Assembly (NCBI GenBank): GCA_964503265.1
Contig: CAZCYO010000004.1
Location: 82,098-146,097 of the forward strand
DNA length: 64,000 nt
DNA from: an uncultured Gammaproteobacteria bacterium
Lineage (GTDB): Bacteria; Patescibacteriota; Microgenomatia; Levybacterales; UBA12049
Reading direction: 5' to 3'
In this document: positions 54,171-61,323 of the stretch, in pieces
Layout of the letters: every line of letters begins with the position of its first letter
How positions within the stretch are numbered: the stretch's first letter is position 1
The notes under the pieces: generated by a model
The model's input: the letters and a program-made list of their open reading frames with translations, nothing else
The model's database searches: none
Told to the model about the DNA's origin: nothing
Position numbers and translations under genes: made by a program

Positions 54171-54596
54171 ATGACGAAAACAGGAAAAAAGGTATTTCTC
54201 TCAGCAGATGTTTTTTTTGCATTTATTGATAGAGCTCATACAAAACACGAGCAAGCATCTGCATACATGCGATATTTTGCCCAGGAAGAGTATTTTCTCT
54301 TTACTGATGTTGTCAGTCTTAATCTCGTCTATGAGCAGATCTATAAAGATATCAGTACATCACTAGCAAAAGACTTTATAAAAACGATTTCGCTAAGCAA
54401 CATCAATATTATCTTTCCTGATGAAAGTGAATTAAAGGCGACGTATAAAACACTGCTTCTTTCTAACTCAACAGAAATCACATTTTTAAAAGCGCTTATT
54501 TCAGTCCTTGCCGAAAAAAGAAGTATTGGTCAAATATGTACCTTTGAATATTTACATCCATTATTTGGCATTTCAATTTTTTACTTACCACTATGA
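54171..54596 (+). CDS. Hypothetical protein, possible PIN-like domain
   Basis: The N-terminus VFLSADVFFAFIDRAHT… resembles the PIN first strand (hhLDTnVhh). Acidic residues are spaced like a PIN fold. The match is weak. Confidence 0.3.
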   Translation: MTKTGKKVFLSADVFFAFIDRAHTKHEQASAYMRYFAQEEYFLFTDVVSLNLVYEQIYKDISTSLAKDFIKTISLSNINIIFPDESELKATYKTLLLSNSTEITFLKALISVLAEKRSIGQICTFEYLHPLFGISIFYLPL

Positions 54597-55681
54597 AAAA
54601 TCCGAAATTCGAATTTACATACTGCACCAGAAAGCTTTCTTTATTTATAGTAATATCTATTTTGATAGCATCATTTCCCACATCTGTATTCGCTGGTCCT
54701 ACTAGTACGAATTATGAGTTAAAAAGTTATGGCTTTGGAGCTGGTGGAGATAGCATGAGCTCAAGTAACTTTAAAGCCAATGGAACAGCTGGCGAGGTGG
54801 AGTTTGGTCAGCTATCATCCGCTTCATATAAAGTAAATAGCGGGCTCACCTTCACGATGCTTGCAAATGAACCTCCTGCTCCAACATTTACTAACCCAGG
54901 AAGTAACTACGACCGGTTAAAGATTGTTATTGCGACAGGAAGTAATGCTTCAGATGCGACATATGCCGTGGCTATTAGTACAGACAATTTCGCAAGTGAC
55001 ACACGGTATGTTCAAAGTGATTTCACTCCGGGAAGTACGCTTGGAACGAGCAGCTTTATGACATATAGCACGTGGGGCAGCGGGAGTGGTGTCTATATCA
55101 CAGGGCTTCTTTCTAATACAACCTACTATGTAAAGGTAAAATCTCGAAAAGGAAATTATACGGAAACTGGATTCGGACCTGTTAGCAGCGCAGCAACGTC
55201 CCTTCCTTCCTTAACGTTTGGACTTGACTCTGCTACGGTCATATTCTCAAATCTTAATTCCGGAAACAGCTATACTGATAGTTCCAAAACATCAGTTCTC
55301 ACAACCTCGACTAATGCATATAACGGCTATGTCATCAACGCTCGAGTCACTGGACCACTTACTTCACCGAGTGACACGATCGCTAATTATGCCAGCTCAA
55401 ACGCAAGCCCAACGACATGGTCTGGAAATGGGTTTGGGTATACGACAGATGATAGTAATCTAACTGGTGGAACAGCAGATCGATTTACAAATGGTGGTCC
55501 TAAATTTGCAGGATTCACGACATCCTCTCCCGGAGACCCTGTCGCAGATCATGCAGGCCCAGTGACCTCGGCTATATCAAATGAGCAATTTACCGTATCA
55601 TATAGGGTCACTTCAGCTTCGACAAATCATGCGGGAAATTATACGACGACAGTATTATATATAGTGGTGCCAACATATTAA
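54593..55681 (+). CDS. Secreted WxL-like (CscB/C-like) surface protein, module 1
   Basis: Signal peptide. The C-terminal domain has …TSTNAYNGYVINARVTG… and the terminal GNYTTTVLYIVVPTY, resembling the two WxL motifs with W/L replaced. It is translationally coupled to the next gene (stop 55681, start 55684). Confidence 0.5.
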   Translation: MKNPKFEFTYCTRKLSLFIVISILIASFPTSVFAGPTSTNYELKSYGFGAGGDSMSSSNFKANGTAGEVEFGQLSSASYKVNSGLTFTMLANEPPAPTFTNPGSNYDRLKIVIATGSNASDATYAVAISTDNFASDTRYVQSDFTPGSTLGTSSFMTYSTWGSGSGVYITGLLSNTTYYVKVKSRKGNYTETGFGPVSSAATSLPSLTFGLDSATVIFSNLNSGNSYTDSSKTSVLTTSTNAYNGYVINARVTGPLTSPSDTIANYASSNASPTTWSGNGFGYTTDDSNLTGGTADRFTNGGPKFAGFTTSSPGDPVADHAGPVTSAISNEQFTVSYRVTSASTNHAGNYTTTVLYIVVPTY

Positions 55682-55683
55682 CT

Positions 55684-56667
55684 ATGAAAATTCAGAATTC
55701 AGAATTCAAAAGTCAAAATCACAGAGTAAAAGGTAAAACTTTTTCATTTTTACTTGTGCTTTTGACTTTTTACTTTTTATTTCTCACCTCTTATTCACCC
55801 ACTGCCCATGCTGCACCAACTCCTCAAGTAATCGATAAAGTTATCCGCATCTCCCCTGTTATCGTGCATCTCAACTTATCACCTGACAAGACCACTACGT
55901 ACGACATGACCATCGAGAATCTTCTCTCAATACCTCTCCCCGTCAAAGCACTCTATAGCGACTTTGACACAACAGCTGAAGACGGTGGGTATGTGTTAAC
56001 AGATAGAAATACTAATTCATTGTTATCGTGGGTGGGGCTTGATAACGAAGAATGGACACTAGCACCTAAAGCCAAACAAAAAATAACATTAACCATCAAA
56101 ACACCTCAAAAGATATCTATAGGTGGCTACTATGGACTTCTTTTCTTTCAACCACTTGTGCCTCAAATAAGTAACCAGACTGCTGTAACTGCAAGAGTCG
56201 GAGTGCTTATGCTTGGAGATATCGGGATTGGTTCTCGAACCGAACACCCAGGAGAGATTATGTCATTTGACCTTCCATTTATTTCACAACAATCGACAAT
56301 GCCCTTTCTCCTTCGAGTCAAAAATACTTCCATGAACTTTTTCACAGCAAAACCAATTCTCAAGATTAAACCACTCATTGGAGAAGTAAAGACACAATTT
56401 ATAGAAGAGAAGCTTATTTTTCCCTCTAAAATCCGCAGATGGCAAAGTGACATTATGCTTGAGCACATAGGAATTGGCATATATACCGTTACCATGCAGG
56501 TTTCAACAGGAAATGGACATATCATAGAGTCCACGCGAACTCTGATTATTTTTCCTTGGGTTCCGGTGCTTTCAATTTCCCTCCTTACAATCATTATTAT
56601 TTGGTCCCTTAAGAATAAACGCCGTCTTAAAAAAGCTGTCGTTGCCCTTATTTCTAAAGAAGATTGA
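55684..56667 (+). CDS. CscA-like (DUF916/DUF3324-like) surface protein with C-terminal TM anchor and basic tail, module 1
   Basis: Signal/TM, ~260-aa beta-rich ectodomain, C-terminal TM (VLSISLLTIIIIWSL) followed by KNKRRLKK. Confidence 0.5.
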   Translation: MKIQNSEFKSQNHRVKGKTFSFLLVLLTFYFLFLTSYSPTAHAAPTPQVIDKVIRISPVIVHLNLSPDKTTTYDMTIENLLSIPLPVKALYSDFDTTAEDGGYVLTDRNTNSLLSWVGLDNEEWTLAPKAKQKITLTIKTPQKISIGGYYGLLFFQPLVPQISNQTAVTARVGVLMLGDIGIGSRTEHPGEIMSFDLPFISQQSTMPFLLRVKNTSMNFFTAKPILKIKPLIGEVKTQFIEEKLIFPSKIRRWQSDIMLEHIGIGIYTVTMQVSTGNGHIIESTRTLIIFPWVPVLSISLLTIIIIWSLKNKRRLKKAVVALISKED

Positions 56668-56724
56668 TTCTACGTCAGAATGATATCTTGACAACTATCT
56701 GAACAATTCCCTAATCTTATATGT

Positions 56725-57855
56725 ATGACTGCCTATTTTTATCGTTATAGTAAATATGTAAAAGTATTTCCGCTCGTTGCATTACTTGTTTTATCATTAG
56801 TCCTTCCTCCTTTTAGTCGAATTTTTGTGGGTAGCGCACAAAGTGCACTCACCTCAACAAAGCTTCAAATAAATAATTCTCAGGCTAGTGCAACAAATGT
56901 AACATATCAATTTTATTTCACCACATCAGTAAGTACTTCGATTAAACAAATCGGAATTAAAGTTTGTACCACTCCTGGTGCATATGGTGATGCTTGTACT
57001 GTACCAACTGCATTTAGTTCGGGAACTCCAACTCTTGCGTCTGATAATCTTGCTGGGACCGGAAGAACGACATCTGATCCAAATTCTTCAGGTGAAAAAT
57101 TTCGAATTGTTGTTACCACTCCTGCATCTCAAGTAACTCAAGGTGTGATTCTCACCTTTACTGGAGTAACTAACTCATCTACAGCTAATTCGCCCTTTTA
57201 TGTCCGAATGAATACGTATTCAGATACAGGAACATCTGTTATCGATTACGGACAGGCTGTCGCTGCGACACTCGACACTTCATCAATTGCTGTTACTGCA
57301 ACAGTTGATCCTAATTTAACATTTGCACTTGCTGGAGTTTCATCAGCAGGAAGTGTTAACAGCTCGACGACAAATATTACAACAACCGCATCAACAATTC
57401 CTTTTGGTACCATGGCAGTTGGTACTCCTAAGATTGGCGCAACTGATGTAACCATTACGACGAATGCAGGAAGTGGATATACAGTCACTGCGTCTCATTC
57501 TGGAACACTTACGACGTCCGCACCGCTTATCTCAGGGTCTAACGATATTGACGCATTTTCAGGAACTAACGCATCCCCAGCGACATGGTCAGCACCAGGT
57601 GGAAGTACAGCGAACACAAATACTGGGTATTTTGGTTACACAACAGAATCATCAAGTCTTTGTACAGGAACTGCTGGAAGATTCGGAAGTAACAAATGGG
57701 CAGGTTCTACGACAAATGGACAAGAAGTCATCTGTTCAGCCACAGGAGTCAGTGCACAAACAACACGTCTGGGTTGGCAGGCTGAAGTTAATGCCATTCA
57801 ACCAGCTGGAACATATACAGGAACTGTTATTCTCATCGCTACACCGACATATTAA
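56725..57855 (+). CDS. Secreted WxL-like (CscB/C-like) surface protein, module 2
   Basis: …STIPFGTMAVGTPKIGATDVTITTNAGSGYTVTASHSG… (compare the enterococcal WxL 'TNAGW.LTV'). The terminal motif is GTYTGTVILIATPTY. Confidence 0.5.
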   Translation: MTAYFYRYSKYVKVFPLVALLVLSLVLPPFSRIFVGSAQSALTSTKLQINNSQASATNVTYQFYFTTSVSTSIKQIGIKVCTTPGAYGDACTVPTAFSSGTPTLASDNLAGTGRTTSDPNSSGEKFRIVVTTPASQVTQGVILTFTGVTNSSTANSPFYVRMNTYSDTGTSVIDYGQAVAATLDTSSIAVTATVDPNLTFALAGVSSAGSVNSSTTNITTTASTIPFGTMAVGTPKIGATDVTITTNAGSGYTVTASHSGTLTTSAPLISGSNDIDAFSGTNASPATWSAPGGSTANTNTGYFGYTTESSSLCTGTAGRFGSNKWAGSTTNGQEVICSATGVSAQTTRLGWQAEVNAIQPAGTYTGTVILIATPTY

Positions 57856-57857
57856 TC

Positions 57858-58793
57858 ATGAATAGCCTCTTGTCTCATACAACGCTCCTACTACGGTCGA
57901 AAAGGATTTCTTATGGAATTATCAGCGTTTTGTTACTTCTCGCTGTATATAAAAGTAACTTCATTACCCAAGGCCAAGTGGCGAGTCAGTCACTTGAAGT
58001 CTCCCCTCCCACACAGGAGATAACTGTCGATCCTGGCAAAACAATTACGGTAAAAGCAAAACTACGTAATAACACACCTCGCAGCCTTCCTATCACAGCT
58101 AAAATAGAAGACTTCACCGCACAGGGAGAAGAAGGCCAAGTAGAATTAAGTAGTTCAAGTAAATGGAGTGTTTCTAAGTGGGCGACGATATCTCCTTCTA
58201 CTTTTAAAATCGCTGGTGGAGAAGAACAAGAAGTAACAGCAACAATCACTATTCCAAAAGAGGCAGCAGGAGGCAGATATGGCTCATTTGTATTTGGAGT
58301 TGATACTGAAAAAACGCCAAATGCAGCAAGTGTCTCACAACAAATTGCTTCACTTTTTTTACTCAGGATCTCAGGTAAAGTTGATGAGGTATTACGACTT
58401 GATTCATTTAGTGCGCCAAACTTCCAAGAATTTGGCCCAGTTCCCTTCTCTCTTACCTTTGCAAACACAGGAAATGTTCACGTGAAGCCATTCGGGCTCA
58501 TCAGTGTCACAGATATGTTTGGACGAAAGACAGCAGATATTGTCGTTAAAGGATCTAATATTTTTCCAGAAGCAAGTCGTGTAATAACATCAAGTCTTCA
58601 TAACAAATTCTTATTTGGTCAATATCATGCAACTGCAGTTATGTACTATGGAGAAGCTAATCAATCGCTCGTGGCAACAACAAGCTTTATCGTATTCCCA
58701 GTCAGAATTGTGGCTGGTGTACTTATTCTCATTATTATTTTCTTACTTCTGAGAAAGCGTTTAGCGCGAGCGTTTAAAGCATTAACTCGTTAA
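57858..58793 (+). CDS. CscA-like surface protein with C-terminal TM anchor, module 2
   Basis: Paralogue of 55684 and 60412 (…FGPVPFSLTFANTGNVHVKPFGLISVTDMFGRK…). C-terminal TM plus LRKRLARAFKALTR. Confidence 0.5.
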   Translation: MNSLLSHTTLLLRSKRISYGIISVLLLLAVYKSNFITQGQVASQSLEVSPPTQEITVDPGKTITVKAKLRNNTPRSLPITAKIEDFTAQGEEGQVELSSSSKWSVSKWATISPSTFKIAGGEEQEVTATITIPKEAAGGRYGSFVFGVDTEKTPNAASVSQQIASLFLLRISGKVDEVLRLDSFSAPNFQEFGPVPFSLTFANTGNVHVKPFGLISVTDMFGRKTADIVVKGSNIFPEASRVITSSLHNKFLFGQYHATAVMYYGEANQSLVATTSFIVFPVRIVAGVLILIIIFLLLRKRLARAFKALTR

Positions 58794-58794
58794 T

Positions 58795-59229
58795 ATGAAG
58801 CTGAGAAGAAGCATTCTGTATCTGTTTCTTTTTTTGTGTGGTTTTTTGACTCATGCACTCCTTTTCCCAGATTTTCTGGCAAATGGTATTGTATTTCAAC
58901 CAGATGCGGTTTTCTCAAATCTAGGATCAGCAGATAAAGCCTCTTCGCAACCAGTCACTCAAGCGACTCATGAAAATGTCATCTCGTTTGATGGCACAAA
59001 ATTTAATAGATCAAATATTACGATCCCACTTACCGATTATATAAGCATTAGAAATGAAAGTACTGAGACACAGATGCACCTCACTTCGGACAATCCAGAG
59101 TTATCTACCCCTCGTGGCTACGCATATAAAGAGCAGGTGCGTACGAGACTTGATAAAGAGGGACAGTTTCATGTGCTTGAGAAGAATGGATCAGGCGCAC
59201 GATTAACTATCACCGTAAAAAAGAAATAG
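58795..59229 (+). CDS. Small membrane-anchored hypothetical protein within the Csc-like array
   Basis: 144 aa with an N-terminal hydrophobic helix. It is coupled to the upstream gene (stop 58793, start 58795). Confidence 0.4.
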   Translation: MKLRRSILYLFLFLCGFLTHALLFPDFLANGIVFQPDAVFSNLGSADKASSQPVTQATHENVISFDGTKFNRSNITIPLTDYISIRNESTETQMHLTSDNPELSTPRGYAYKEQVRTRLDKEGQFHVLEKNGSGARLTITVKKK

Positions 59230-59311
59230 AAGTACATTATTCTTTTGCATCGTACCTCATCCATAGTCTTGACAGCAATCACCTAAATATGACAAGCTTG
59301 ATGTATCTGCC

Positions 59312-60409
59312 ATGAAAAAATTACGTACTTCAAATAAACAATTGACACGCCGCCTAGGAACGCTGGGGCTTATCGGACTCATGATATTTGCAAGTATATT
59401 TAGTTACAGTAGCAAGAAGGCAGAAGCCGCACTTCTTTCCGCAGCTTCAGTTCAAATGAGTGATTCCCGTCCGAGTGGGACAAGCGTTACCTATACAGGC
59501 ACATTTACTTTTCCTGGTACAACCTCAATCAAGTGTATTGATATTATCTTTGGAAGTACTGCAGCGAATATTACTACGACACCCAATCCTGCAACCACTG
59601 CTCCAACAAGCATGACAACAACTTCAGCAGCAAAAGTTTCAGTGTCAGGAGGCGGATTAACGAATGGTAACTGGACACTATATAATTCAACCAATGGTAT
59701 TCTCCAATATGAATATTCGACAGGTAGTTCAACTACCGCTACTGCAGTCACCATCACCACAAGCGGCATTACGAATACAAGTAGTGGAACATTTTATGCG
59801 CAGGTCGCTACGTACTCTTCGTTATCAGGCAATACATGCTCGACACTTGTAGACACAAGTAATGTCATGGCATTAACAACTGTTGCAGGAGTCACAGCAT
59901 CTGTTAGTGTCGATCCAACAGTGTCATTCTCAGTCGCGAACTATGGAAGTGCAGTAAACAGTTCTGGTGACACGTCTCCAGTAACAACAACTTCTAGTAC
60001 TATTCCTTTTGGAACTGTCGCTGCTGGATCAACTTCATGGGGTTCACAGACATTAACGACTTCAACAAACGGTGCCAATGGATATACGCTCTATATTCGA
60101 GATACACAGTCACTCACAAACTCTAATTTAGATACGATTCGAAATCAATCAGGAACTGTTGGATCTCCAGCTTCGTTTGATGGGTCATCATCACAATCTT
60201 CATTTGGCTTTACAACTGACAGTAGTACTGTTTCCATGGGGTCGAATCAATGGGCAGGATTAACGACCTCAAACGTATCAATTCATACTCGAACTTCAGC
60301 TCAAAATGCGGATGCAATTCACGTACAATACAAAGCACAAATTAGTAATACTCAGCCTCCTGGAACCTATTCATCGGTTGTGATATACACTGTTGCACCT
60401 TCATACTAA
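59312..60409 (+). CDS. Secreted WxL-like (CscB/C-like) surface protein, module 3
   Basis: …SSTIPFGTVAAGSTSWGSQTLTTSTNGANGYTLYIRDTQS…. Terminal motif GTYSSVVIYTVAPSY. Confidence 0.5.
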   Translation: MKKLRTSNKQLTRRLGTLGLIGLMIFASIFSYSSKKAEAALLSAASVQMSDSRPSGTSVTYTGTFTFPGTTSIKCIDIIFGSTAANITTTPNPATTAPTSMTTTSAAKVSVSGGGLTNGNWTLYNSTNGILQYEYSTGSSTTATAVTITTSGITNTSSGTFYAQVATYSSLSGNTCSTLVDTSNVMALTTVAGVTASVSVDPTVSFSVANYGSAVNSSGDTSPVTTTSSTIPFGTVAAGSTSWGSQTLTTSTNGANGYTLYIRDTQSLTNSNLDTIRNQSGTVGSPASFDGSSSQSSFGFTTDSSTVSMGSNQWAGLTTSNVSIHTRTSAQNADAIHVQYKAQISNTQPPGTYSSVVIYTVAPSY

Positions 60410-60411
60410 GC

Positions 60412-61323
60412 ATGAAAAAACGATCTATTGTACTGAGTATAGTGTTCTCGCTACTGTTAGGTGTGGTTTTTTATGCCAAACTCCACGCACAGAAATCAAT
60501 TCCAGGACTCGTCGTCCATCCATCAAATCTAGAAATTGCACTCTCCCCTTCTGAATCAATCACGAAAGAAGTATATGTTGAGAATCAAAGCGAAAAAGCT
60601 ATCCAAATCTCAGCAACCTCTCGAAACTTCTCAGCCAGTGGAGAAGAAGGATCTGTCGAGTTCACCGATGAAACATCATCATTTTCTTTGGCTTCTTGGA
60701 TTAAATCAATACCAAAAACTGCCACAATTGCGCCTAAATCTTCTCAGAAATTTATCATAACGATTACTGCGCCTAAAAATGCTGAACCTGGTGGACATTT
60801 CGCCTCAGTTATCTTTGGCACACTTCCAGGAAAAGTAGCTGGTGGAACTGGAGCAGCGATTTCTCAAGAAGTCGCATCCCTCATCCTTGCGAGGGTTCCA
60901 GGAGATGTGAAAGAAGACGCAGCAGTTGAATCATTTGATACGGATAAACCATTTTATGAATTTGGGCCAGTGACATTTGATACACGTGTTTTAAATAAAG
61001 GACGAGTACATATAAAACCTGCTGGTGAAATTCTCATTACTGACATGTTTGGTCGCAAGATTTCAGTGCCTTTTAACAGTAATAACGTGCTTCCAAACGC
61101 AATTCGACGCATGGACACGACATGGAAAACACCATTTCTGATCGGTAAATATTCAGCGAAATTAATCGTCAGTTATGGTAGTAAAAATCAGAATCTGTAT
61201 GCTTCAACTGAATTTTACGCATTTCCAGTTCGATATGGCGCAATTGCACTCGTCGTCCTAGTACTCTTCTTCCTCATGCGACGAAGACTTGGAAAAGCAC
61301 TTAAAGCACTTATCAAGGGCTAA
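60412..61323 (+). CDS. CscA-like surface protein with C-terminal TM anchor, module 3
   Basis: …FGPVTFDTRVLNKGRVHIKPAGEILITDMFGRK… is paralogous to 57858. C-terminal TM plus MRRRLGKALKALIKG. Confidence 0.5.
   Translation: MKKRSIVLSIVFSLLLGVVFYAKLHAQKSIPGLVVHPSNLEIALSPSESITKEVYVENQSEKAIQISATSRNFSASGEEGSVEFTDETSSFSLASWIKSIPKTATIAPKSSQKFIITITAPKNAEPGGHFASVIFGTLPGKVAGGTGAAISQEVASLILARVPGDVKEDAAVESFDTDKPFYEFGPVTFDTRVLNKGRVHIKPAGEILITDMFGRKISVPFNSNNVLPNAIRRMDTTWKTPFLIGKYSAKLIVSYGSKNQNLYASTEFYAFPVRYGAIALVVLVLFFLMRRRLGKALKALIKG

Follow-up and report, generated by a model that had tools for sequence, protein, structure and literature searches.

A probable Pam-type donor-strand pilus operon with three pilin-chaperone gene pairs in a Microgenomatia bacterium

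The window, by which we mean the whole 64,000-nt stretch of DNA analysed here, contains three A-B gene pairs on the forward strand, together with a small gene, S, and, upstream, the genes for an HTH_17 protein and orf141 (Table 1). All open reading frames were recovered at the coordinates, and in the A-then-B architecture, described in an earlier sequence-only reading of this DNA. The genes are tightly packed, with 2 nt at each A/B junction and 1 nt between B2 and S; since they do not overlap, the translational coupling claimed in that reading is something that we infer from the packing. Each A protein begins with a hydrophobic signal; each B protein, as had been described, also starts with a signal and closes with a transmembrane (TM) helix and an Arg/Lys tail. 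Neither the ORF list nor Pfam and NCBIfam searches revealed genes for an usher, a sortase or an ATPase at the locus. Identity among the paralogues is 31%–37% for the A proteins (for A1 limited to the C-terminal half) and 24%–37% for the B proteins, values that point to old, divergent modules and not to a recent triplication.

Table 1. Coordinates of the array and its neighbours in the window.
Feature	Position	Strand	Remarks
Secreted repetitive protein, 2,809 aa	45156..53585	-	divergent from operon
HTH_17 DNA-binding protein, 96 aa	53827..54117	+	Pfam HTH_17 E 8e-12
orf141, 141 aa	54171..54596	+	stop overlaps A1 start codon by 4 nt
A1	54593..55681	+	362 aa
B1	55684..56667	+	327 aa
A2	56725..57855	+	376 aa
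A2 inter-domain linker LDTSSIAVTATVDPN	57271..57315	+	candidate donor strand; mean conservation 0.84
A2 C-terminal strand AGTYTGTVILIATPTY	57808..57852	+	mean conservation 0.88
B2	57858..58793	+	311 aa
S	58795..59229	+	144 aa
A3	59312..60409	+	365 aa
B3	60412..61323	+	303 aa

The locus was compared with a set of 78 fetched loci, the record titles of which, where informative, name Levy-, Roizman-, Gottesman- and Woesebacteria, Saccharibacteria, WWE3, and Kaiser-, Nealson- and Paceibacteria. The canonical order, HTH-orf141-A1-B1-A2-B2-S, recurs in about 40 relatives; two pairs (A1-B1-A2-B2) are the usual arrangement, and the six-gene A/B array was seen, among the 78 loci, only in the window's own contig, the third pair (A3-B3) being an add-on to the canonical locus that resembles the Saccharibacteria type. 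The A1 type is present in 47 of the 78 loci and the B1 type in 42. In 41 related loci a homologue of S (E down to 1e-35) comes immediately after the B2-type gene, so that the small membrane protein noticed earlier inside the array is a conserved member of the module, membrane-anchored and beta-rich, which matches no Pfam, NCBIfam or PHROG family. Likewise, HTH_17 homologues upstream of the A1-type gene and orf141 homologues in the same position (E 1e-48 to 1e-53) were each found in 21 related loci, and both genes belong to the module; the HTH_17 protein is probably the regulator heading the operon, and orf141 has no Pfam or PHROG match. The 2,809-aa protein, homologues of which occupy the same place in about 10 related loci, is a recurrent neighbour, the membership of which in the system is uncertain: it lacks the pilin C-domain and has no match in Pfam, PHROG or PDB. 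The A2 family comprises 2,225 representative clusters at E<=1e-3 and includes giant proteins with the same C-terminal module as A; of the 340 A2 homologues, all those with source names come from Patescibacteria, and B-type genes of Saccharibacteria match at E 1e-61 to 1e-81. The family appears to be confined to CPR bacteria, which have no outer membrane.

The A proteins are Sec-exported pilins. A1 matches the NCBIfam models NF058581 (Pam_pilin_C; E 1.1e-10, residues 220–362 against model positions 7–148 of 148) and NF058579 (PamT; E 4.3e-10, residues 16–87), and A2 matches NF058581 (E 9e-8, residues 221–376 against model positions 2–148 of 148), in each case under the curated cutoff (pilin C-domain, cutoff 55 bits: A1 41.8 and A2 32.3; PamT, cutoff 240 bits: A1 39.4), which no protein of the window attains. 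Saccharibacteria relatives of A2 behave in the same way, and we attribute the low scores to the locus representing a Microgenomatia branch. A1 is a tip-like pilin, with a PamT-like N-terminal segment, an FN3-like insert (weak Pfam fn3 match, residues 167–191) and a Pam pilin C-domain. A2 is the main two-domain pilin (N-domain 43–183, linker 183–197, C-domain 198–376). A3, with no direct NCBIfam match, is a second full-length pilin (E 3e-47 over its full length to the A2-family HMM) of a Saccharibacteria/WWE3-like type, being 35%–42% identical to the pilins of four comparison loci (L047, L048, L050 and L064) versus 31% to A2. The AF2 model of A2 (pLDDT 82) shows nine N-domain strands, a low-confidence linker (pLDDT below 50 at residues 187–194 in the monomer) and a C-domain. 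A2 is thus built from a nine-strand beta-sandwich N-domain, a short, highly conserved linker and a C-terminal beta-domain that closes with the invariant G-x-Y...P-T-Y strand, and the same build follows for A3 by homology. The linker, in which hydrophobic residues alternate, is more conserved than either the N-domain (mean 0.74) or the C-domain (0.78) and is exceeded only by the last strand; A2 also contains two Cys pairs. Both motifs quoted in the sequence-only reading were confirmed: A1, A2 and A3 all carry the C-terminal G-x-Y-T/S...P-T/S-Y, and the second motif reads TNAGSGYTV in A2, TNAYNGYVI in A1 and TNGANGYTL in A3. The C-terminus is of fixed length: of 133 A-type proteins, 132 have Tyr or Phe as their last residue, and 102 place the Gly of G-x-Y exactly 15 residues from the terminus.

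Each B protein is made up of a pair of Ig-like domains and, at the C-terminus, a TM helix with a basic cytoplasmic tail. In the AF2 model of B2 (pLDDT 85), the domains span residues 46–171 and 179–279 and the TM helix 282–310; B1, the membrane-anchored chaperone-like protein paired with A1, has a signal peptide, a TM helix at 285–311 and a basic tail and matches the B2-family HMM over its full length (E 5.7e-30). B3 (E 3e-78 to the same HMM) is the chaperone-like partner of A3 and is 44%–46% identical to the chaperone-like genes of two comparison loci, L047 (Saccharibacteria) and L048. Pfam WxLIP_PGBD (DUF916) is matched at sub-threshold scores by all 41 B2-family members (best E 5e-7) and by the B proteins of the window (13.7–24.7 bits against a GA of 27.3; E 2.6e-5 for B3). 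HHalign of a profile of 104 diverse CPR B-type ectodomains against nine genuine WxLIP ectodomains gave a probability of 97.8% and E 7.7e-13 over 215–227 columns, with a score of 88 versus 13.9 for reversed and at most 46 for block-shuffled controls, and the only significant PDB sequence matches of a diverse B profile were the Enterococcus faecium WxLIP chains 9i25_C and 9i1y_A (E 1e-5). The same chains were the best Foldseek matches of B2 (TMq 0.47), followed by the chaperone-usher chaperones CfaA, FimC and CsuC; YadV and EcpB also matched structurally. B2 and its paralogues are, then, true remote homologues of WxLIP, short of family membership, and of the earlier assignment to DUF916/DUF3324 the first half stands as remote homology, whereas sequence comparison did not detect the DUF3324 half (HHalign P 0.004).

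This homology bears on the reading originally proposed, a cell-surface complex of the kind encoded by the Csc/WxL clusters of Lactobacillales, under which the A proteins would be degenerate WxL proteins, held non-covalently on peptidoglycan and stabilized there by WxLIP-orthologous B proteins, and no filament would form. Those clusters encode WxL proteins and WxLIP (DUF916, DUF3324 and a TM helix), which, by prediction, donates a strand to WxL in the manner of a pilus chaperone (PMC1534035, PMC10599100; PDB 9i1y, 9i25). WxLIP and B have one architecture, in which a signal peptide precedes two Ig domains, a TM helix and a basic tail; B is remotely homologous in sequence to the DUF916 domain (E 3e-14) and superposes best on WxLIP; the client gene precedes that of the TM-anchored two-Ig partner, as in the nine distinct WxLIP-carrying Csc loci examined; and in both systems small and giant clients share one C-terminal module, the giants here recalling ‘large WxL’ proteins. 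The likeness of A to WxL, however, is limited to one C-terminal beta-strand motif, G-x-Y-T-x-x-h-x-h-x-h..P, similar to the second of the WxL motifs. With relaxed settings HHalign aligns the two collinearly over 158 columns. The HHalign P of 0.026 for the A C-domain against genuine WxL profiles is accounted for by that short motif, block-shuffled controls that keep short motifs equalling the score in 3 of 60 trials. Both Trp/Leu pairs are missing, W-x-L occurring in the last 20 residues of none of the 133 A-type proteins; Pfam WxL is matched, even at E<=10, by none of the 44 full-length or 38 C-domain sequences nor by the three A proteins of the window; a PDB search with a diverse A C-domain profile turned up no WxL chain; and none of 10 genuine WxL proteins matches the Pam models, which A1 and A2 do match, below cutoff. 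No test thus supports identifying A as a WxL protein. Furthermore, the N-domain and conserved candidate donor linker of A2 and A3 are missing from small WxL proteins, S shows no relationship to the small LPXTG protein encoded after WxLIP in Csc loci, an LPXTG partner is absent from the locus, the organism belongs to another phylum, and Saccharibacteria relatives form filaments by cryo-EM (bioRxiv 10.64898/2026.03.03.709456). A Csc/WxL-type complex is therefore unlikely.

Still less probable is that the A proteins act as monomeric adhesins with an Ig fold, like MSCRAMMs or Gram-positive pilins, and reach the cell surface by another route, with B as unrelated membrane Ig proteins. The whole A2 model does yield generic beta-sandwich matches in Foldseek, but those of this type have low TM-scores (0.2–0.25) or comprise a single generic beta-sandwich, the A proteins end in P-T-Y rather than an LPXTG sorting signal, the locus has no sortase, and the strict pairing of pilin and chaperone genes, kept across the 78 loci, argues for a functional partnership. 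A classical chaperone-usher pilus (Pap, Fim or class 5 CFA/I with CfaA/CfaE) acquired from a diderm bacterium is the least credible reading. Such pili share with this locus the two-domain Ig chaperone fold, a conserved Gly and aromatic residue at fixed distances from the pilin C-terminus, and presumed donor-strand complementation and exchange; the best (low-scoring) Foldseek match of A2 is the CFA/I tip adhesin CfaE, and weak DUF4402 and Fimbrial matches occur in 6 of 38 A C-domains. Against it, the usher and, in this apparently CPR-confined family, the outer membrane are absent, the chaperones are TM-anchored rather than soluble, the candidate donor strand is an inter-domain linker rather than an N-terminal extension, and homology of B to PapD is undetectable by sequence, with neither PapD_N nor PapD_C among the best 25 of 37 Pfam families for 41 B proteins and no such chaperone among the PDB sequence matches of the B profile at E<=1.

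Taken together, these observations indicate, with a probability of about 80%, that the operon of this Microgenomatia (CPR/Patescibacteria) bacterium encodes a Pam-type donor-strand pilus. The Pam pilus, a thin attachment filament of ultrasmall CPR bacteria, was described in a 2026 preprint from Ca. Mycosynbacter amalyticus and other CPR bacteria, with PamA/B/E/T pilins, PamC/D chaperones and operons located beside ATP synthase genes (bioRxiv 10.64898/2026.03.03.709456). Since Microgenomatia homologues are included in that work, the system is, contrary to what had been suggested, not unreported for this kind of organism, and the present locus adds a Microgenomatia operon. A2 agrees with the preprint's description of PamA/PamB in the nine N-domain strands, conserved linker, C-domain and Cys pairs; in both systems the neighbouring chaperones have two Ig domains and a TM helix at the C-terminus and the tip-type subunit is encoded first, both do without usher and ATPase, and both appear confined to CPR. 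Apart from its sub-cutoff scores, the locus differs from Pam in the chaperone gene that follows every pilin gene, giving three pairs, in the FN3-like insert of A1, and in the inclusion of S and the HTH/orf141 pair in the module; no PamR-like terminator is distinguishable from the chaperones, and no ATP synthase genes lie within the 64,000 nt. Nor did fold searches with the whole A2 model yield more than generic beta-sandwich structures and one chaperone-usher tip adhesin at low TM-score.

If the cryo-EM and AlphaFold results on Pam pili of Ca. Mycosynbacter amalyticus are taken as a guide, together with chaperone-usher systems and WxLIP-WxL complexes, assembly of such a pilus might proceed as follows. 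After export, each B protein would be held in the membrane with its ectodomain outside and would cap its cognate pilin by inserting a beta-strand of its own into the incomplete C-domain; candidate donor elements are the EDFTAxGxEGQV loop (residues 83–100) and QIASLFLLRISG (162–173), a conserved G1-like strand downstream of a flexible loop. The filament would then grow by donor-strand exchange, the linker of the incoming pilin ousting the chaperone strand from the C-domain groove of the previous subunit, and neither usher nor ATPase would be needed. With its PamT-like N-terminus, FN3-like insert and a linker less hydrophobic than those of A2 and A3, A1 would probably occupy the distal tip, whereas A2 and A3 would form the shaft, possibly in successive stretches. 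Contact with host cells would be the most likely role of the filament. The homology between Pam chaperones and WxLIP, which goes unmentioned in the Pam preprint (bioRxiv 10.64898/2026.03.03.709456), is an interesting by-product of this analysis.

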